DNA of 32,000 bases, taken from Moorena sp. SIOASIH. Its GTDB lineage: Bacteria; Cyanobacteriota; Cyanobacteriia; Cyanobacteriales; Coleofasciculaceae. The notes beneath the pieces were generated by a model. It saw nothing but the letters and a program-made list of their open reading frames with translations, was not told the origin of the DNA and did not search any database. The DNA lies in assembly GCF_010671925.1 (NCBI RefSeq), contig NZ_JAAHIH010000004.1:1043234-1075233 (forward strand), given 5' to 3'. Shown in pieces: positions 11,079 to 24,099 of the stretch (the first letter of the stretch is position 1; each line of letters opens with the position of its first letter). Both the position numbers and the translations under genes were made by a program.

Positions 11079-11516
11079 GTAGGGTGGGCAGTGCCTAGCA
11101 ACCCGATGGCTAGCTTGGTGAATCTGCCTGATCCACTGCCCACCCTAGATCTACTTGATATCAGTAGGGTGGGCAGTGCTTAGCAACCCGATGGCCAGCT
11201 TGGTGAATCTGCCTAATCCACTGCCCACCCTACATCTTGATATCAGTAGGGTGGGCAGTGCTTAGCAACCCGATGGCCAGCTTGGTGAATCTGCCTAATC
11301 CACTGCCCACCCTACATCTTGATATCAGTAGGGTGGGCAGTGCTTAGCAACCCGATGGCTAGCTTGGTGAATCTGCCTAATCCACTGCCCACCCTACATC
11401 AAGCTCAATACAAATACAGGGTTGTATAGTAAAAAAGTGATTAATCGTAGGGTGGGCAGTGCTTAGCAACCCGATGGCCAGCTTGGTGAATCTGTCTGAT
11501 CCACTGCCCACCCTAC
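11079..11516. repeat. Five copies of a 70-bp palindromic element (15-bp arms GTAGGGTGGGCAGTG / CACTGCCCACCCTAC, about 40-nt loop); copies 2-4 form an exact 82-bp tandem period
   Basis: The copies lie at 11079-11148, 11164-11233, 11246-11315, 11328-11397 and 11447-11516. Their loops differ by only 1-3 SNPs. The 12-bp spacers ATCTTGATATCA are identical. Confidence 0.9.
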
Positions 11517-16098: not shown

Positions 16099-16354
16099 TC
16101 CCGACTCCCGACTCCCGACTCCCGACTCCCGACTCCCGACTCCCTAATAAAATCCACCTCACCCCATTCAGAAGTATGTAGGGTGGGCAGTGCAAAAGAT
16201 AGATCAGAGCAGGTGGGGATAGGATTAGTAGGCACTGCCCACCCTACTAACTAAAAAAATCCACCTCACCCCATTCAGAAGTATGTAGGGTGGGCAGTGC
16301 AAAAGATAGATAAGAGCAGCTGGGGATAGGATTAGTAGGCACTGCCCACCCTAC
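16099..16354. repeat. Composite repeat: (CTCCCGA)x6-7, then two 107-bp tandem units each holding a 70-bp GTAGGGTGGGCAGTG palindromic element (loop variant B)
   Basis: The heptamers span 16099-16144 and the hairpin elements 16178-16247 and 16285-16354. Both are preceded by AAATCCACCTCACCCCATTCAGAAGTAT. Confidence 0.9.
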
Positions 16355-16436
16355 TAACTACTAACTGATGGGGAGGGGCTGCATCAAGACATAGTAGGGA
16401 TTTTAGCTAAATTTATCAACCATCAGTCAGGTCAGT

Positions 16437-17467: not shown

Positions 17468-17655
17468 GGTCACTCCCGACTCCCGACTCCCGACTCCCTA
17501 AAAAAATCCACCTCACCCCATTCAGAAGCTCCCTACTCCCTAAATAAATCCACCTCACCCCATTCAGATGTAGGGTGGGCAGTGCAAAAGATAGATAACA
17601 GCAGCTGGCGATAGGATTAGTAGGCACTGCCCACCCTACTAACTACTAACTAACT
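17468..17655. repeat. Second, same-orientation copy of the composite repeat seen at 16099-16354
   Basis: (CTCCCGA)x3 + AAATCCACCTCACCCCATTCAGA (twice) + palindromic element 17570-17639 + CTAACTACTAACTAACT. Confidence 0.9.
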
Positions 17656-17710: not shown

Positions 17711-18217
17711 ATGGAACCATTAGCCGCTGCCGTTGTCGCTATTTCTACTGTGCTCGCCACTAAAGCCTTAGAAAAAACTGGGGAAAATGTCGGGCAAGTT
17801 GTTTGGGACCAGACTAGCCAGTTTGTAGAATCCCTGAGAAACCAGTCTCCAGATACAGTAATGGCTATTGAGAAAACCCCAGAGGTACCTCTTAATTATG
17901 CCGACGTGGTATTGGAAGTAGAAGCAGCAGCGAAGCAAAATCCCGAAGTTGCCCAAGCCATGGAGCATTTAGTGGCTACTGTTGATGCTGAAGCTTTGCC
18001 TAACTTAGAGGAAATTCTTGAAAAGATTACCAAAGCCTTGGAATCCCACGAGGCTACTGGTGAGAATTACAACAATGAAAACGTGAAGAACTTTGCCAAA
18101 GGGGATATTATTAATCAACATAATCCTAATTTTGGAGAAAAACAAACTAATATTGGAAATATTGGAGAAAACCAAACTATTCAAAGAGGCGAAAATTTTC
18201 AAAATATTAATATTTGA
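17711..18217 (+). CDS. N-terminal module of the NLR-like locus: alpha-helical domain plus an N/Q/G-rich tail, ending at TGA 18215-18217, which is in frame with the downstream NB-ARC ORF
   Basis: A 168-aa ORF. It opens with a hydrophobic first helix (MEPLAAAVVAISTVLATKALEK), followed by an acidic helical region. The tail GENYNNENVKNF / GDIINQHNPNF / GEKQTNIGNI / GENQTIQR / GENFQNINI forms pseudo-repeats. Confidence 0.6.
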   Translation: MEPLAAAVVAISTVLATKALEKTGENVGQVVWDQTSQFVESLRNQSPDTVMAIEKTPEVPLNYADVVLEVEAAAKQNPEVAQAMEHLVATVDAEALPNLEEILEKITKALESHEATGENYNNENVKNFAKGDIINQHNPNFGEKQTNIGNIGENQTIQRGENFQNINI

Positions 18218-21200
18218 CTGCAGTCGCCTCGGAGTGAGGTTAAACAAACTCGACCAAATCAAGCACCCCCACTACCTCCGTATTATGTCGAACGCCCGGA
18301 AGTAAGCCAACGACTAAAACAAATTCTTTTATCTGAAGAAACCGCTAAAGCTGGCACCTTAGTTGTTAGTGCCATCTATGGTTTAGGAGGCATTGGGAAA
18401 TCCACCATTACTGCCGCCTTAGCCCATGATCCAGAGGTTCAATCCCATTTTCACGATGGGATTTTTTGGGCAACCTTAGGTCAGCAGCCTGATATTTTAT
18501 CCTTTCTAAGTACGTGGATACAGGCATTAGGAGATTATGACTTCAAACCGATTAATATTGATAGCGCTTCTTTACAATTAAGAACGTTATTATCCGATAA
18601 AAAAGCCTTACTAGTCGTGGATGATGTTTGGCATCCTGACCATGTTGAACCCTTTCGAGTAGCCGGTGGTGGCTGTCGGGTTTTAGTGACCACCAGAGAA
18701 GCTCCGGTTAAAGGTGCGATTCGCTATGATTTAGACGTGATGACTCCAAAGCAATCCTTGGAGTTATTAACGTCTTGTTTACAGCTTTTTTCAGATGAAT
18801 CGACCTCACTCCCTTTAGCTGCAAGCCCCCTAAATCCCCCAATTCTGGGGGACTTTAACTCAAGTTACCCCCAAAGTTGGGGGGCTAGGGGGGCGAAAAT
18901 TGCTGTAAACAACGAGTTAACTAATCAAGAACTCGACTATGCTAAAACCTTAGCAAAAACTGTCGGCTACTTACCCCTAGGATTAGAATTAGCTGCTGCC
19001 CAAGTTAGGGATGGATTCTCTTGGGAAGAGTTACTGGGTGAGTTAAAAGCAGAAATTGCTGATTTAGAAGCTTTAGATCGATTGGAAGCAGAGGAAGAGC
19101 CAAGTGACGCTAAGCGCAAAAACTACAGTCTTGTCGCTTCCTTTAATCTCAGTTTAAAGCGATTATCCCCCGAGAGATTGAAAAAATTTGCTTGGTTAGG
19201 GGTACTGCCCGATGATGTCACCATTACTGAAACCATGGCGACTACGTTATGGAACTGTAATTCATTTAAAGCCAAAAAGACTTTACGATACTTACGGCAA
19301 AAAGCCTTATTACTACCTGGTGTATCTAGTACCCAAGACACTAACTATCGCCTCCATGACCTGTTACATGATTTAGCCCGTAATCTGCTGCAACCAGAGC
19401 TAGGATTATCAATTACCGAAGCTCATCGGCAATTATTAGAACGTTATCAAACTAAGACCGATAAGGGATTATGGCATACGTTACCTGATGATGGTTATAT
19501 CTATAACCACTTAACCTGGCACCTAGAGAAAGCTGAAAAGATAGATGAAATTCATCAACTCCTGAAAGAAGAAACTCCAGAAGAAGATAACGGTTGGTAT
19601 TGGCAGTGTGAGAGACAGGGAAATACTGCTAATTTTGTTAAGGACCTATCGAGAGCTTGGGCAATAGCAGCAGCCAATTTTACAGAAAATCCTACAGAAT
19701 CGATTAGTTTACAGTGTCGGTATGCTCTGATTACCACATCCCTCAACAGCTTGGCTGGAAATATTTATCCAGAGTTAATGGCAGCATTACTGGAGAACAA
19801 AATCTGGACTGCAGCTCAAGCACTAGCTTATGTGCGACAGATTAAAGATTCTAGTAGGCAAGCAGAGGGTTTGGAGGCAATTAGTGAGTATCTTCCCCTT
19901 TCTTTATTACCGGAAGCTTTAGATTGCGCCACAGGGATTTCCGATGAATACTACCGACCCTATGCCTTAAGAGCCTTAGCCCCCCACTTACCGGATCTGT
20001 TGTTACCCCAAGCCTTAGATTGCGCCACAGGGATTTCCCATGAATACTCCCGAGACTATGCCTTAGTCGCCTTAGCCCCCCACTTACCCGATGTGTTGTT
20101 ACCTAAAGCCTTGGATTGCGCCAGAGGGATTTCCGATGAAAAAGACCGAGCCTATGCCTTAGTGGCCTTAGCCCCCCACTTACCCGATGTGTTGTTACCC
20201 CAAGCCTTAGATTGCGCCAGAGGGATTAAGTCTGAATACCACCGAGCCGATGCCTTAGTCGCCTTAGCCCCCCACTTACCGGATCTGTTACCGGAAGCCT
20301 TAGATTGCGCCAGAGGGATTAAGTCTGAATACCACCGAGCCGATGCCTTAGTCGCCTTAGCCCCCCACTTACCGGATCTGTTACCGGAAGCCTTAGATTG
20401 CGCCAGAGGGATTTCCGATGAAAAAGACCGAGCCGATGCCTTAGTCGCCTTAGCCCCCTACTTACCTGATGTGTTGTTACCCCAAGCCTTAGATTGCGCC
20501 AGAGGGATTTCCCATGAATACTCCCGAGCATTAGCCTTAATCCGCTTAGCCCCCCACTTACCGGATGTGTTACCGGAAGCCTTAGATTGCGCCATAGGGA
20601 TTTCCGATGAAAAAGACCGAGCCGATGCCTTAGTCGCCTTAGCCCCCCACTTACCCGATCTGTTGTTACCCAAAGCCTTAGATTGCGCCAGAGGGATTTC
20701 CCATGAATACTCCCGAGCCAGAGTCTTAGTCGCCTTAGCCCCCCACTTACCGGATCTGTTACCGGAAGCCTTAGATTGCGCCAGAGGGATTTCCGATGAA
20801 TACTCCCGAGCAGAAGCCTTAGTCGCCTTAGCCCCCCACTTACCGGATGTGTTACCGGAAGCCTTGGATTGCGCCAGAGGGATTAAGTGTGAAGGCTTCC
20901 GAGTTTTTGCCTTAGTCGCCTTAGCCCCCCACTTACCGGATGTGTTACCAGAAGCCTTAGATTGCGCCAGAGGGATTTCCCATGAAAAAGAACGAGCCGA
21001 TGCCTTAGTCGCCTTAGCCCCCCGCTTACCCGGTGTGTTGTTACCCCAAGCCTTAGATTGCGCCAGAGGGATTTCCCATGAATACTCCCGAGCCTATGCC
21101 TTAATCCGCTTAGCCCCCCACTTACCGGATGTGTTGTTACCCAAAGCCTTAGATTGGGCCAGAGGGATTTCCCATGAATACTCCCGAGCCGATGCCTTAG

Positions 21201-22360
21201 TCGCCTTAGCCCCCCACTTACCGGATGTGTTACCGGAAGCCTTGGATTGCGCCAGAGGGATTGACCATGAATACTCCCGAGCCAGAGTCTTAGTCGCCTT
21301 AGCCCCCCACTTACCCGATCTGTTGTTACCCAAAGCCTTAGATTGCGCCAGAGGGATTGACCATGAATACTCCCGAGCAGAAGCCTTAGTCGCCTTAGCC
21401 CCCCACTTACCGGATCTGTTGTTACCCCAAGCCTTAGATTGCGCCAGAGGGATTTCCGATGAATACTCCCGAGGCCATGCCTTAGTCGCCTTAGCCCCCC
21501 GCTTACCGGATCTGTTGTTACCCAAAGCCTTAGATTGCGCCACAGGGATTTCCCCTGAAAACTACCGAGCCTATGTCTTAGTCGCCTTAGCCCCCCGCTT
21601 ACCGGATCTGTTGTTACCCCAAGCCTTAGATTGCGCCAGAGGGATTTCCCATGAATTGTTCCGAGCCCATGCCTTAGTCGCCTTAGCCCCCCACTTACCC
21701 GATCTGTTACCGGATGAAGCCTTAGATTGTGCCAGAAGGATTTGGAATGAATGCGAGCGAGCATTAGCCTTAGAAGCCTTAGCCCCCCACTTACCCGATC
21801 TGTTGTTACACCAAGCCTTAGATTGCGCCACAGGGATTTCCCCTGAAAACTACCGAGCCTATGCCTTAGTGGCCTTAGCCCCCCACTTACCGGATGTGTT
21901 GTTACCCAAAGCCTTAGATTGCGCCAGAGGGATTAAGTCTGAATCAGACCGAGCCCATGCCTTAGTGGCCTTAGCCCCCCACTTACCGGATGTGTTGTTA
22001 CCCAAAGCCTTAGATTGCGCCAGAGGGATTTCCCATAAATTATACCGAGCCGATGCCTTAGTCGCCTTAGCCCCCCACTTACCCGATCTGTTACCGGAAG
22101 CCTTAGATTGCGCCAGAGCCATTGGGGATGAATCCGAGCGAGCCGAAGTATTATTACAGGGCTTGATCAAGAGATTAACTCCTTCGTCAGTTGATTTTCC
22201 TCTTTGGCAACAAATTCTTGATGGTTTAGCTAGTCTAACCCGTCCCAATTTTCTTGAAGCTCTTCCTAAATTAGCTCCTTTAATCATTAAGTTTGGGGGT
22301 ATTGAAGCCCTAAGAGAAACGGTGGCAGCGGTTGAAGATGTTAGCCGATGGTGGAAGTAG
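18218..22360 (+). CDS. STAND NTPase: NB-ARC domain + about 24 HEAT-like 31/32-aa repeats + helical C-terminal cap. There is no canonical start codon before the P-loop, so it is probably one gene with 17711-18217 (a pseudogene or recoded gene)
   Basis: The frame is open from 18218. The motifs are P-loop GLGGIGKST (18380-18406), Walker B/kinase-2 LLVVDDVW (18608-18631), RVLVTTRE, a GLPL-like GYLPLGLELAAAQV (from 18965) and an MHD-like RLHDLLHDLA (19349-19378). The first ATG/GTG/TTG in frame is GTG 18617, which lies inside Walker B. Confidence 0.8.
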   Translation: MQSPRSEVKQTRPNQAPPLPPYYVERPEVSQRLKQILLSEETAKAGTLVVSAIYGLGGIGKSTITAALAHDPEVQSHFHDGIFWATLGQQPDILSFLSTWIQALGDYDFKPINIDSASLQLRTLLSDKKALLVVDDVWHPDHVEPFRVAGGGCRVLVTTREAPVKGAIRYDLDVMTPKQSLELLTSCLQLFSDESTSLPLAASPLNPPILGDFNSSYPQSWGARGAKIAVNNELTNQELDYAKTLAKTVGYLPLGLELAAAQVRDGFSWEELLGELKAEIADLEALDRLEAEEEPSDAKRKNYSLVASFNLSLKRLSPERLKKFAWLGVLPDDVTITETMATTLWNCNSFKAKKTLRYLRQKALLLPGVSSTQDTNYRLHDLLHDLARNLLQPELGLSITEAHRQLLERYQTKTDKGLWHTLPDDGYIYNHLTWHLEKAEKIDEIHQLLKEETPEEDNGWYWQCERQGNTANFVKDLSRAWAIAAANFTENPTESISLQCRYALITTSLNSLAGNIYPELMAALLENKIWTAAQALAYVRQIKDSSRQAEGLEAISEYLPLSLLPEALDCATGISDEYYRPYALRALAPHLPDLLLPQALDCATGISHEYSRDYALVALAPHLPDVLLPKALDCARGISDEKDRAYALVALAPHLPDVLLPQALDCARGIKSEYHRADALVALAPHLPDLLPEALDCARGIKSEYHRADALVALAPHLPDLLPEALDCARGISDEKDRADALVALAPYLPDVLLPQALDCARGISHEYSRALALIRLAPHLPDVLPEALDCAIGISDEKDRADALVALAPHLPDLLLPKALDCARGISHEYSRARVLVALAPHLPDLLPEALDCARGISDEYSRAEALVALAPHLPDVLPEALDCARGIKCEGFRVFALVALAPHLPDVLPEALDCARGISHEKERADALVALAPRLPGVLLPQALDCARGISHEYSRAYALIRLAPHLPDVLLPKALDWARGISHEYSRADALVALAPHLPDVLPEALDCARGIDHEYSRARVLVALAPHLPDLLLPKALDCARGIDHEYSRAEALVALAPHLPDLLLPQALDCARGISDEYSRGHALVALAPRLPDLLLPKALDCATGISPENYRAYVLVALAPRLPDLLLPQALDCARGISHELFRAHALVALAPHLPDLLPDEALDCARRIWNECERALALEALAPHLPDLLLHQALDCATGISPENYRAYALVALAPHLPDVLLPKALDCARGIKSESDRAHALVALAPHLPDVLLPKALDCARGISHKLYRADALVALAPHLPDLLPEALDCARAIGDESERAEVLLQGLIKRLTPSSVDFPLWQQILDGLASLTRPNFLEALPKLAPLIIKFGGIEALRETVAAVEDVSRWWK
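18824..18895. repeat. 72-bp G/C-hairpin small repeat inserted in frame within the NB-ARC domain
   Basis: CCCCCTAAATCCCCCAATTCTGGGGGAC...CCCCCAAAGTTGGGGGGCTAGGGGGGCG contains the hairpins CCCCCA-ATTC-TGGGGG and CCCCCAA-AG-TTGGGGG. It encodes SPLNPPILGDFNSSYPQSWGARGA between the RNBS-B-like and GLPL-like motifs. A related CCCCCCTTAGTAAGGGGGG repeat lies intergenically at 24205-24223. Confidence 0.65.
19916..22170 (+). repeat. Coding tandem array of about 24 units of 93/96 bp (31/32 aa), consensus ALDCARGIxxExxRAxALVALAPHLPD(L/V)(L)LP(E/Q/K)
   Basis: Counted by eye from the translation. Units at 20204-20296 and 20297-20389 are 93/93 identical. The backbone is nearly invariant at DNA level, and variation clusters at a few codons. 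Confidence 0.9.
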
Positions 22361-22445
22361 GGAAAAGGGAGTAGGGAGTAGGGAGTAGGGAAGAGATAAG
22401 AGGCAATAGGCAATAGGCAATAGGCAATAGGTAAGAGATAAGAGT
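22361..22445. repeat. Composite heptamer array (GGGAGTA)x3 - GGGAAGA GATAAGA - (GGCAATA)x4 - GGTAAGA GATAAGA
   Basis: Direct reading; it starts immediately after the STAND stop codon. Confidence 0.9.
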
Positions 22446-22651
22446 TAATCAAGGATAGAGGAATTATGATTAGCTTTACTGGGTGTGGCGTGAACGGGTG
22501 TTAGGATTCAGTTGATGCCTGTGCCATGGGGAAGAATTGCGCTAAGCTAATGTTAGCTTAATCATGGGCAAGTTTCGTTTTGCTAACTCACCTAGACTAT
22601 AGGTAAGCTCAATCAATAATAATCAACACTCTCATCAAAACAATACTATCC

Positions 22652-22933
22652 ATGGAAAACGTCAATCAAATTACCTTAAATTTACCCACAGATTTGCTGA
22701 AAACTACAGAAGAACTAATTCAGACAGGACTAGTAAAGAATCTTGAGGAATTAGTTGTATTAGCCTTGCATCATGAAGTTGCAAAAATTAAAGGATTACA
22801 GCCAAACAATCAACAGCTACCACAAAATAGCAATGGTGTAGATGATCCCATTTGGGGACTCGGAGAGAATCCAGTTGTGGGTGGAGTCAGTGATGCTTCT
22901 ACATCTATTGATCAGTATTTATATAACTATTAA
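22652..22933 (+). CDS. Antitoxin-like protein (ribbon-helix-helix/CopG-like), VapB-type partner of the downstream PIN toxin
   Basis: A 93-aa ORF. ITLNLPTDLLKTTEELIQTGLVKNLEELVVLALHHEV fits a beta-strand plus two helices. Its stop lies 2 nt before the PIN gene start (TAATAATG). Confidence 0.6.
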   Translation: MENVNQITLNLPTDLLKTTEELIQTGLVKNLEELVVLALHHEVAKIKGLQPNNQQLPQNSNGVDDPIWGLGENPVVGGVSDASTSIDQYLYNY

Positions 22934-22935
22934 TA

Positions 22936-23343
22936 ATGAATTGCTTGTTTTTAGACACAAGCTATGTTATAGCTTTAGAATTAGCGGATGACCAAAATCA
23001 CTCAATCACTTTAAATCATTGGCAAAGTTTAGACAGAAAGACTTTAAAGTTAGTCACAACGTCTTATGTTTTTGATGAAGTGGTAACCTTCTTAAATAGT
23101 CGTTATCTTCATAGTAAAGCTGTTGAAATAGGAAAACGTTTACTAACCAGCTCTGTAGTAGATTTGATTCAGGTTAATGAAGTTCTTTTTTTAGAAGGGT
23201 GGGAATATTTTCAGAAATATCAAGATAAATCGTATTCGTTAACAGATTGCCTATCTTTTGTGGTGATGAACAAGCTAAAAATTAATGTTGCTTTAACATT
23301 TGATCAACATTTTGTACAAGCCGGATTTATTAAGTTACCATAA
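22936..23343 (+). CDS. vapC: PIN-domain ribonuclease toxin (VapC family)
   Basis: A 135-aa ORF. It has MNCLFLDTSYVIALE (first acidic PIN residue), FDEVVTFL, and the SLTDCLSFVVM...ALTFDQHF distal acidic residues. The size and gene pairing are typical of VapBC. Confidence 0.8.
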   Translation: MNCLFLDTSYVIALELADDQNHSITLNHWQSLDRKTLKLVTTSYVFDEVVTFLNSRYLHSKAVEIGKRLLTSSVVDLIQVNEVLFLEGWEYFQKYQDKSYSLTDCLSFVVMNKLKINVALTFDQHFVQAGFIKLP

Positions 23344-23538: not shown

Positions 23539-24099
23539 TTATGTTACATCTTCATACAAAGCCTCAAGACTAGTTCTAAAATCCACAGTTTCTAGATGAA
23601 TCTCACTGCCCGGATAATAAAATTGTAATGTCCAAATTCCCTCGGAATTTCGGCGGAAGCAATCTAAGCGTTTACGGTTTTGACTAATTAAAACATATTC
23701 AACCAAGGTTTCTAATTGTTGATAGTCCGAAAATTTATCACCCCGGTCAAAGGCTTCAGTTTTGGGAGATAAAACTTCCACAATTAAGCAAGGATATTTT
23801 TTATAGTTAGTCAATTCTCGGTCTCTGGCATCGCAAGTCACGAAAACATCAGGATAATAATAACTATTGGATGCTTCGACATAAGCTTTCATATCTGCCA
23901 TATAAACCCGACAGCCAGTGCCCCTGACATGATTTCTTAACAGGGCAAATAAGTTACCGGCAATAGTAACATGGGCATCACTCGCCCCAGCCATGGCATA
24001 GACTTCTCCATCACTATACTCGTGTTTGATGGAACTATCTTCTTCGTAGGATAGATACTCTTCTTTGGAAATGTAATTGGGGCTTTTATCAGCAATCAT
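23539..24099 (-). CDS. Uma2-family endonuclease (DUF820, PD-(D/E)xK-like putative restriction endonuclease)
   Basis: A 186-aa ORF with YLSYEEDSSIKHEYSDGEVYAMAGASDAHVTIAGNLFALL, PDVFV and LIVEVLSPKTEAFDRGDKFSDYQ. This is the characteristic D...EVxS..T...D...K..Y pattern of Uma2 proteins, which are abundant in cyanobacteria. Confidence 0.85.
   Translation of the reverse strand: MIADKSPNYISKEEYLSYEEDSSIKHEYSDGEVYAMAGASDAHVTIAGNLFALLRNHVRGTGCRVYMADMKAYVEASNSYYYPDVFVTCDARDRELTNYKKYPCLIVEVLSPKTEAFDRGDKFSDYQQLETLVEYVLISQNRKRLDCFRRNSEGIWTLQFYYPGSEIHLETVDFRTSLEALYEDVT

Follow-up and report, generated by a model that had tools for sequence, protein, structure and literature searches.

A highly regular HEAT-like repeat array with localized variation in a Moorena NB-ARC protein preceded by a conserved in-frame TGA

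We analyzed a 32,000-nt stretch of the genome of the filamentous cyanobacterium Moorena sp. SIOASIH (contig NZ_JAAHIH010000004.1, positions 1,043,234 to 1,075,233; hereafter the window), in which a small putative effector gene is followed by a long reading frame for a protein of the NOD-like receptor (NLR) type that ends in an array of near-identical helical repeats. From 17711 to 22360 the frame is continuous except for a TGA at 18215-18217. The features of this locus are the following:

17711-18217, plus strand: small effector gene, 168 amino acids (aa) (homolog alignment, AlphaFold2)
18215-18217, plus strand: in-frame TGA between the effector gene and the NLR frame, a candidate readthrough (recoding) site (listing of open reading frames (ORFs), junction comparison)
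18218-18240, plus strand: candidate recoding context, an 8-nt spacer CTG CAG TC and then a 5-bp hairpin (covariation)
18218-22360, plus strand: NLR reading frame, 1380 codons and stop (ORF listing, translation)
18311-18772, plus strand: NB-ARC NTPase (PF00931, E 4.1e-19, residues 32-185)
18782-18907, plus strand: 126-nt in-frame NB-ARC insertion (QLFSDESTSLPLAASPLNPPILGDFNSSYPQSWGARGAKIAV), rich in G/C palindromes (ortholog and paralog comparison)
19415-19564, plus strand: APAF1_C-type helical domain (PF17908, E 1.6e-6, residues 400-449), followed by a helical linker to 19915
19916-22099, plus strand: 23 complete HEAT-like units of 31/32 aa with high internal conservation and hypervariable columns 9, 10, 12, 13 and 16 (Tandem Repeats Finder, translation, unit alignment, AlphaFold2, Foldseek)
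22100-22357, plus strand: degenerate unit 24 and conserved C-terminal cap (...LTPSSVDFPLWQQIL...GGIEALRETVAAVEDVSRWWK) (homolog comparison, AlphaFold2)

The long frame has the organization of a signal transduction ATPase with numerous domains (STAND) of the NLR type: an NB-ARC with intact P-loop GLGGIGKST (~18380-18406) and Walker B motif LLVVDDVW (~18605-18628), an APAF1_C helical module and a C-terminal repeat superstructure. An earlier note on this DNA, made from the letters alone, had guessed that the repeats were an NLR sensor. Their position agrees with this guess: the array lies C-terminal to an NB-ARC (Pfam E 4e-19) and an APAF1_C domain, and we therefore infer a sensor of the NLR type. 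In our judgment the array is likely to be the C-terminal ligand-recognition domain of an Apaf-1-type STAND/NLR protein in filamentous Moorena.

Tandem Repeats Finder (TRF) detected a single array at 19907-22118, with a period of 96, 23.3 copies and a score of 2922, and translation of the ORF as assembled gives 24 units beginning with ALD(C/W)A, all in the long-ORF frame. The roughly 24 near-identical 31/32-aa units that had been placed at 19916-22170 resolve into 23 complete ones (19916-22099) and a degenerate unit 24, which retains just ALDCARAIGDESERAEVL from 22100 and is followed by a non-repeat C-terminal cap ending ...DVSRWWK. This cap is conserved in homologs from Symploca, Anaerolineae, Pyrinomonadaceae and others, and forms three or four helices closing the solenoid in the AlphaFold2 (AF2) model described below.

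The near-invariance of the repeat scaffold at the DNA level, claimed in the earlier note, is evident in a codon alignment of units 1-23: the scaffold codons GAT, GCC, ATT, CGA, TTA, GCC, CCC and TTA are each found in 23/23 units, and many scaffold columns are invariant including their third codon positions. Units 4 and 5 (20204-20296 and 20297-20389) are indeed identical at 93/93 nt. Mean pairwise identity among units is 0.86 for nucleotides and 0.77 for amino acids, and Psim, computed for the units against their consensus, is 0.83, which passes the cut-off of at least 0.70 that defines high internal conservation (HIC) in NLR repeats (PMC13449251). Counting recovered all the cassettes that had been listed (SHEYSR five times, SDEKDR three times, KSEYHR, SPENYR and DHEYSR twice each), with SDEYSR also present twice, as well as the tails that follow them (ADA in seven units, AYA in three, and AEA, ARV, AHA and ALA in two each). 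Unit length likewise tracks the linker, as had been stated, with LPE ending 8/8 of the 31-aa units and LLPQ or LLPK ending the 32-aa units, two exceptions aside (LLPDE and LLLHQ).

Variation within the array is localized rather than even. Across units 1-23, amino acid entropy above 1.3 bits is restricted to columns 9, 10, 12, 13, 16 and 32, with moderate variation in columns 6, 19, 28 and 32. Codons 9, 10, 12, 13 and 16 make up 5/32 of the unit and hold 103/198 nucleotide differences from the consensus (52%, against an expectation of 16%). Variable positions had been proposed at x1x2, x3x4 and x5x6(x7) around a fixed E and R; x1 to x4 and x6 (column 16) are indeed variable, and columns 15 and 17 are mostly Ala (19/23 and 20/23 units, respectively). 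The variable set is x1x2-E-x3x4-R-A-x6. Within the window array, the ratio of nonsynonymous to synonymous substitution (dN/dS, Nei-Gojobori) is 5.5 in these five hypervariable codons, 1.4 in five moderately variable codons and 0.32 in the 22 scaffold codons, for columns that were picked post hoc. Per-column entropy and dN/dS on aligned units, the check that the earlier note had named, are both high at columns 9, 10, 12, 13 and 16.

The same positions recur elsewhere. In 11/11 paralogous arrays from other Moorena genomes, these five columns have the top entropy (Spearman 0.47-0.75 against the window profile), averaging 1.4-2.5 bits at the five columns and 0.2-1.1 bits at the others. Furthermore, two highly conserved arrays from clearly different lineages (proteins P0348 and P0377) vary at the same columns.

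We modeled the last eight units and the cap with AF2, using 39 homologs. The model (pLDDT 95.1, pTM 0.87) consists entirely of helical hairpins stacked as a solenoid. According to DSSP, each unit comprises helix A (positions 27-32 and 1-6, D-L-L-(L)-P-E-A-L-D-C-A-R), a loop (positions 7-10, G-I-x-x), helix B (positions 11-24, E-x-x-R-A-x-A-L-V-A-L-A-P-H) and an L-P turn. The top Foldseek matches in the PDB, at probability 1.00 and TMq 0.55-0.64, are the PP2A A subunit, importin/karyopherin proteins and CAND1. Because Foldseek ranks HEAT proteins first, we assign the modeled array to the HEAT-like fold class, in structure only. At the level of sequence, we found no Pfam match to HEAT, HEAT_2, HEAT_PBS or ARM in the window protein up to an E of 0.1, none to HEAT-type Pfam profiles in the window segment and four homologs up to an E of 1, and no HEAT, ARM or TPR repeat profile in Pfam or NCBIfam that detects the array. 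The earlier description of the units as HEAT-like is thus upheld by predicted structure and not by sequence profiles.

Comparison with canonical HEAT proteins (PP2A A subunit, the importin-beta family and CAND1) shows the same two-helix units in a curved solenoid; sequence identity is only 12-17%, with no profile match, and the Moorena units are shorter and far more regular than eukaryotic HEAT units. PBS-lyase-type HEAT-like repeats and the alphaRep proteins have units of ~31 aa with an R-x-x-A-(A/L)-x-A-L signature in one helix, and the alphaRep library has five or six designed variable positions on one helix as its binding surface. Only at rank 50 of the Foldseek list does an alphaRep structure appear, and HEAT_PBS and HEAT_2 give no match; the relationship would be analogy or very remote homology at best. 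At the sequence level, the PDB gave a single match, H. pylori CagY in its middle repeat region (E 3e-13, window 21335-22357 against 6odi_b / 6x6j_AY). It rests on the pattern (Q)ALDC-x(11-13)-L-x(2)-L-x-P-x(5)-LL with its conserved Cys, which may reflect homology or convergence, and is a repeat-on-repeat match whose single stretches are weak (E 7e-4 to 18). CagY, which is known for in-frame recombination that changes its repeat number, shares the ALDC pattern but is a type IV secretion component and not an NLR.

The variable columns fall at defined places in the modeled unit. Columns 9 and 10 are the last two residues of the loop. Helix B has columns 12, 13 and 16 as its second, third and sixth residues, and columns 19 and 20, which are variable in paralogs, as its ninth and tenth. 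A helical wheel places columns 12, 13, 16, 19 and 20 at 340-100 degrees, and the invariant E, R, A, L, L and A at 140-300 degrees. This geometry suggests that the variable residues form one exposed stripe along the solenoid, on a face of ~120 degrees. A loop or helical surface had been predicted for the variable positions in the earlier note; the end of the loop and one face of helix B, as placed by DSSP and helix geometry, fit that prediction.

Relatives of the array are widespread. An exhaustive HMMER search of 1.84 billion cluster representatives returned 4,624 relatives at an E of at most 1e-3 and 1,113 at an E of at most 1e-30. The majority are 1,000-2,000 aa long and carry the repeats in their C-terminal half, and the architectures that we sampled include caspase-NB-ARC-APAF1_C, NB-ARC alone, nSTAND1 and a protein kinase combined with an NPHP3_N-type NTPase. 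In adjacent-unit identity, the window array comes third among the best 150 relatives. A scan of one genome per species found 12 related loci, all in Moorena, with two or three paralogs per genome. We take the array to represent an uncatalogued repeat class without a profile model, with ~4,600 cluster representatives at 50% identity. In one relative, from a Pyrinomonadaceae metagenome-assembled genome (MAG; P0057), the repeat family lies N-terminal to a KAP-family P-loop NTPase, and the repeat module is therefore not confined to the C-terminus of NB-ARC proteins.

HIC together with repeat shuffling and positive selection at a few positions is established in the WD40, TPR and ANK sensors of fungal NLRs and in one HEAT array, and HIC with hypervariable sites has been reported for bacterial WD and TPR NLRs. 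The Moorena array shares several properties with the fungal HIC sensors (the WD40 repeats of HET-E/HET-D/HNWD; in Podospora, HIC TPR, ANK and one HEAT array). Both are part of an NLR architecture; fungal units are 80-100% identical with Psim of at least 0.7, compared with 0.83 here; and both show few hypervariable positions under diversifying selection. Repeat-number polymorphism and unit shuffling, known in the fungal sensors, are suggested for Moorena by short-read assemblies. Unlike them, the Moorena protein has a bacterial host, combines NB-ARC with APAF1_C and uses a 31/32-aa HEAT-like hairpin without a SMART or Pfam model, and it is known from assemblies only. The HIC regime of NLR sensors is thus already known; the repeat class is new and the principle is not. 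Published surveys would have missed the HEAT-like class because they covered ANK, TPR, WD40 and LRR only, and current surveys of bacterial NLR diversification are blind to it. With the array, the fungal strategy, in which repeats stay near-identical and contact residues are hypervariable, would extend to a repeat class that is widespread in bacteria. The array also offers a concrete system for asking what multicellular cyanobacteria recognize, and its 31/32-aa units, a highly regular natural scaffold whose variable stripe is defined, may be of interest for binder engineering.

The gene directly upstream of the NLR frame encodes a 168-aa protein whose conserved N-domain (residues ~3-112) is helical and whose N/Q/G-rich tail (NFGEKQTNIGNIGENQTIQRGENFQNINI) is disordered. 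In its AF2 model the helices are confident and the tail has pLDDT <50. The protein matches a hypothetical protein from the MAG Moorea sp. SIOASIH at 100% identity and belongs to a family of 128-175-aa proteins found across cyanobacteria. A search with the N-domain fold gave no significant PDB match; the best, to Bcl-2/Bcl-xL (E>2, TM 0.25), is not evidence of relationship. From its sequence, we describe the protein as Bell-like with a BASS-like amyloid-signaling motif, likening it to the Bell domain by its published description. The locus has the layout of the Bell/BASS pairs found beside NB-ARC/NACHT NLRs (Dyrka et al. 2020): a small helical effector with a C-terminal G/N/Q-rich motif of ~25 aa, adjacent to, collinear with and directly upstream of an NB-ARC NLR in a multicellular cyanobacterium. 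Unlike those pairs, the window NLR has neither a copy of the motif nor a start codon, and the two frames are joined by a conserved TGA and a hairpin.

Relatives of the effector differ in how they are connected to an NLR. Where the effector ends in TAA or TAG (L033, L037, L062, L063, L039, L026 and L054; these labels denote loci), a separate, ATG-started NLR follows, whose N-terminus repeats the motif of the effector tail; in one example, KLAEKIGQVVMPGGTGNIGNMSF and a stop are followed by MSEGDRKFADKIGVYIAPGGKASIGTQ.... This is, judged from sequence features, the Bell/BASS amyloid-signaling arrangement of Dyrka et al. In the window, by contrast, the tail motif is not repeated at the N-terminus of the NLR, where the sequence after the TGA reads LQSPRSEVKQTRPNQAPPLPPYYVERPE, and TGA-type NLRs have no motif of their own. 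Two genetic solutions, a duplicated motif and a TGA junction, thus coexist within the effector family. A further variant occurs in five Moorena paralogs (L003, L006, L007, L008 and L011), which have lost the tail and the TGA and gained an ATG (MNNQTRFNQAPP...; MNNQTR...). Their upstream N-domain is frameshifted or missing, and the NLR appears to stand alone while the effector has decayed.

The TGA itself is conserved. We found it at the same position in seven further Moorena loci of the genome scan, in the syntenic orthologs L017-L023, in metagenomic loci, in Nostoc sp. 106C and in Gloeothece PCC 7424, where the small gene lies at CP001291.1 4301340-4301774. For the comparison of junctions, a metagenome scan with the N-domain alignment added 80 loci, with either kind of stop. 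(TGA junctions are present at L001, L002, L004, L005, L009, L010, L012, L013, L015, L017-L023 and many of L024-L103.) Omitting two junctions on contigs too short to classify, 40 distinct TGA junctions are followed by a long in-frame ORF and 9 by a short ORF alone, compared with 0 and 18, respectively, for distinct TAA/TAG junctions (Fisher's exact p = 5e-10 for loci that are not phylogenetically independent). No sense-codon fusion of effector and NLR occurs among about 70 loci.

Canonical start codons are scarce after the TGA. The window frame contains no ATG, GTG or TTG from the TGA as far as the Walker B region at 18617, and in 36/40 junctions 9-133 codons pass before the first canonical start. 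In both Gloeothece PCC 7424 and Nostoc sp. 106C, gene callers had to place the NLR start within or beyond the conserved FVGR motif. Without readthrough of the UGA, the NLR would have ~40 residues before its NB-ARC and no N-terminal effector on the same polypeptide. The 56 codons from the TGA to the P-loop have a dN/dS of 0.38.

The sequence around the TGA is conserved as well. The following base is C in 36/40 junctions, and the next codon is CTG in 29, CTA in 7, GTG in 3 and ATG in 1. In the window, the 8-nt spacer is followed by a G/C-rich hairpin (5′ arm 18226-18230, loop GGAGT 18231-18235, 3′ arm 18236-18240). Across 26 distinct junction sequences, 99.2% of hairpin cells are paired, compared with 12-36% in slid controls, and compensatory changes are seen in three of the five pairs (CG/UA 13:13, CG/UA 16:10 and GC/CG 25:1). 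None of 500 shuffles reached the observed number of cells paired, the number of cells changed on both sides or the covariation score. The window hairpin is itself a compensatory CCTC/GAGG variant of the CCTG/CAGG stem of Moorena. Rfam has no family at the junction, and we detected no tRNA in the window, hence no suppressor or tRNA-Sec. Selenocysteine at the UGA was considered and judged unlikely, since relatives end exactly there with TAA or TAG and the site is a linker.

Together, the conserved TGA, its CTR context and the covarying hairpin at 40 junctions suggest programmed readthrough. To the stronger proposition, that the NLR is produced only by programmed UGA readthrough (UGA-CUR, an 8-nt spacer and a covarying 5-bp hairpin), we give about even weight. 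The viral and eukaryotic "type II" readthrough signals consist of UGA-CUA or UGA-CGG with a 3′ stem-loop about 8 nt downstream, and phage Q-beta also uses UGA readthrough. The junction resembles the type II signals in its UGA-CUR, its 8-nt spacer, its covarying hairpin and a long extension under purifying selection. Unlike them, it occurs in a chromosomal bacterial gene family, its hairpin has just 5 bp, and it is known here from sequence alone. We found no mention of stop codons or readthrough in the Dyrka paper, and full-text literature searches gave no paper on readthrough in NLR/Bell pairs.

The main alternative to readthrough, which we disfavor and consider unlikely, is that the NLR is translated separately by termination-reinitiation at the codon abutting the TGA (CUG, GUG or AUG), yielding a product without effector or amyloid motif. 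That codon is NTG in 33/40 junctions, and the Moorena hairpin loop is Shine-Dalgarno-like (GGAGG), both of which would suit reinitiation. Several lines of evidence argue against it. First, CTA, which is not an initiation codon, occupies 7/40 distinct junctions and is commoner in Moorena (5/8 tabulated loci, plus the L018-L023 orthologs), and selection for initiation should have made ATG and GTG dominate. Second, a stable hairpin 8 nt downstream would impede initiation, and its geometry is classic for recoding stimulators. Third, the stop is exclusively TGA. Finally, relatives with separate NLR genes all own a copy of the motif, which a reinitiated product would lack.

If programmed readthrough does occur, which is the simplest reading of the junction, most ribosomes would produce a free Bell-like effector with its amyloid-type tail, and a minority would produce a fusion of effector, tail, NB-ARC and HEAT-like sensor. 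Sensor and executioner would then share one genomic copy of the motif in place of the duplicated motif of two-gene pairs, and the stoichiometry of sensor and effector would be fixed translationally. As an instance of programmed readthrough on a bacterial chromosome, the UGA-hairpin junction would be rare, and it would show how the amounts of sensor and effector, and the identity of their motif, can be coupled in prokaryotic amyloid-type death signaling. Combined with a recombination-diversified array, this would make a bacterial immune receptor that uses a virus-style recoding signal.

These features lead us to propose the following mode of action. The hairpin units stack, as modeled, into a HEAT-like alpha-solenoid. 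Two residues of the loop and three of helix B (positions 2, 3 and 6), joined in paralogs by helix-B positions 9 and 10, would give it a continuous stripe of ~5 x 23 variable residues, which would be the binding surface. Unequal crossing-over or gene conversion among units, and probably also among the paralogous arrays, of which a genome has three or more, would keep the scaffold near-identical at the DNA level, and the same recombination would add, remove and reshuffle units while selection keeps or favors amino acid differences at the stripe. By analogy with other NLRs, ligand binding would release the autoinhibition of the NB-ARC and lead to oligomerization, with phage or other non-self proteins as the obvious candidate ligands. 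The output would be nucleation of the amyloid-type tail of the upstream Bell-like effector, leading to cell death. The NLR itself would most probably be made as an extension product, with the effector at its N-terminus, by ribosomes that read through the UGA.

A number of points weigh against this account of the array as a diversified ligand-recognition domain. The NB-ARC of the window copy carries the 126-nt insertion. PADLOC, with its Avs, bNACHT and other models, matched neither the effector nor the NLR protein, so that there is no direct tie to a tested defense system. The mapping of variable residues to a surface comes from DSSP and helix geometry rather than from measured solvent exposure. 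The dN/dS contrast depends on the post hoc choice of columns, and its replication in other arrays is the fairer test. The pattern could in part reflect relaxed constraint at exposed sites combined with a homogenized remainder. Finally, the identical adjacent units 4 and 5 present the situation most prone to collapse or expansion in assembly.

This last point bears on a distinctly unlikely explanation, that the array, or its unit number and order, is collapsed, expanded or chimeric from near-identical 96-bp units, perhaps mixed between paralogs. Public Moorena contigs do end at or inside such arrays (L001 and L021-L023) or hold N runs (L012), and there are three or more paralogous arrays per genome with 0.87-0.91 scaffold identity, in addition to the identical units 4 and 5. 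Yet the frame is open across all 24 units and joins correctly to the conserved cap, and a mean nucleotide identity of 86% lets reads of ordinary length place the units. The same organization and variable columns appear in many independent assemblies, and the source contig is apparently 1.3 Mb.

Comparison between loci indicates that the array turns over. Paralogous arrays have roughly 5 to 29 units. Like the window locus, the syntenic orthologs carry the 126-nt insertion and are flanked by genes for an ammonium transporter, a hexapeptide transferase and a glycosyltransferase, but their array is quite different and more degenerate. Syntenic metagenomic orthologs on contigs from different samples, all short-read assemblies, are one unit apart (1320 and 1288 aa), one having an extra duplicated unit, and also differ in unit content. 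Scaffold nucleotide identity is 0.92 within the window array, 0.89-0.91 between the window and non-syntenic paralogs and 0.78 between the window and syntenic orthologs, whereas NB-ARC divergence from the window is about equal in orthologs and paralogs (dS 0.18-0.23). These data fit replacement or homogenization of the array by exchange among paralogs. The earlier note had called the locus rapidly evolving or prone to assembly errors, and both descriptions apply: orthologous arrays have been remodeled, and several contigs are broken or N-gapped within arrays.

A neutral origin, in which one unit was recently amplified and the differences mark the least constrained surface positions without selection for diversity or sensing, seems improbable. 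Scaffold dS is lower within the array (0.11) than between paralogs (about 0.2), which fits recent common ancestry, and exposed helix positions generally tolerate substitutions. In the five hypervariable codons, however, pN is 0.49 against a pS of 0.13, and relaxed constraint cannot push dN far above dS. Many of the differences involve two or three nucleotides per codon (TCC/AAG and CAT/TCT), and hypervariability at these columns extends to old, degenerate arrays and to distant lineages.

It is very improbable that the NLR is a dead gene and the array its decaying relic. The lack of an ATG, GTG or TTG from the TGA to the Walker B region, the insertion in the NB-ARC and the orthologous L017, truly broken after 218 codons, could be read in this way. 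The 126-nt insertion, which translates as ...PLNPPILGDFNSSYPQSWGARGA..., is found in the syntenic orthologs L001 and L017-L023 only, is absent from all paralogs and looks like a small mobile element tolerated in frame. Against decay, the 1380-codon frame is intact, and an identical TGA junction with a covarying hairpin is present at 40 distinct junctions in several genera, never as TAA or TAG. Purifying selection is also apparent: relative to paralogs, dN/dS in the NB-ARC part is ~0.25 over 524 codons, which indicates a functional gene, and just after the TGA it is the 0.38 given above.

Writing of the variation by a diversity-generating retroelement (DGR), despite the DGR-diversified sensors known in cyanobacterial conflict systems, is extremely improbable, as neither a reverse transcriptase nor a template repeat was found within the 32-kb window, the variation hits C, T and G of consensus codons and not adenines alone, and it spans 23 tandem copies rather than a single variable region.

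Two of the related loci are probably pseudogenized copies: L017 (Moorea sp. SIO1F2, a syntenic ortholog), whose NLR frame is broken 218 codons after the TGA, and L065, whose junction reads TGA CTG TAG. Within the window array, minus-strand ORFs with repetitive translations (20883-21764, 21094-21543, 21571-21831 and 21859-22452) were rejected as by-products of the repeat and not genes.

The window locus is flanked by housekeeping genes and, directly 3′ of the NLR, at 22652-23343 and 23539-24099, by a small ORF with a PIN-domain protein (a VapBC-like toxin-antitoxin pair) and a Uma2-family nuclease; the syntenic orthologs instead have a ParE-like gene and a cadherin-repeat gene upstream. The neighborhood of the NLR is a variable island. 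A repeated element of ~80-107 nt around the inverted repeat GTAGGGTGGGCAGTGC...GCACTGCCCACCCTAC (11079-11400, 16144-16360 and 17487-17640) forms tandem arrays of 3.9 and 2 copies and reappears directly before the effector gene. TRF also showed that most intergenic spacers are filled by heptamer microsatellites.

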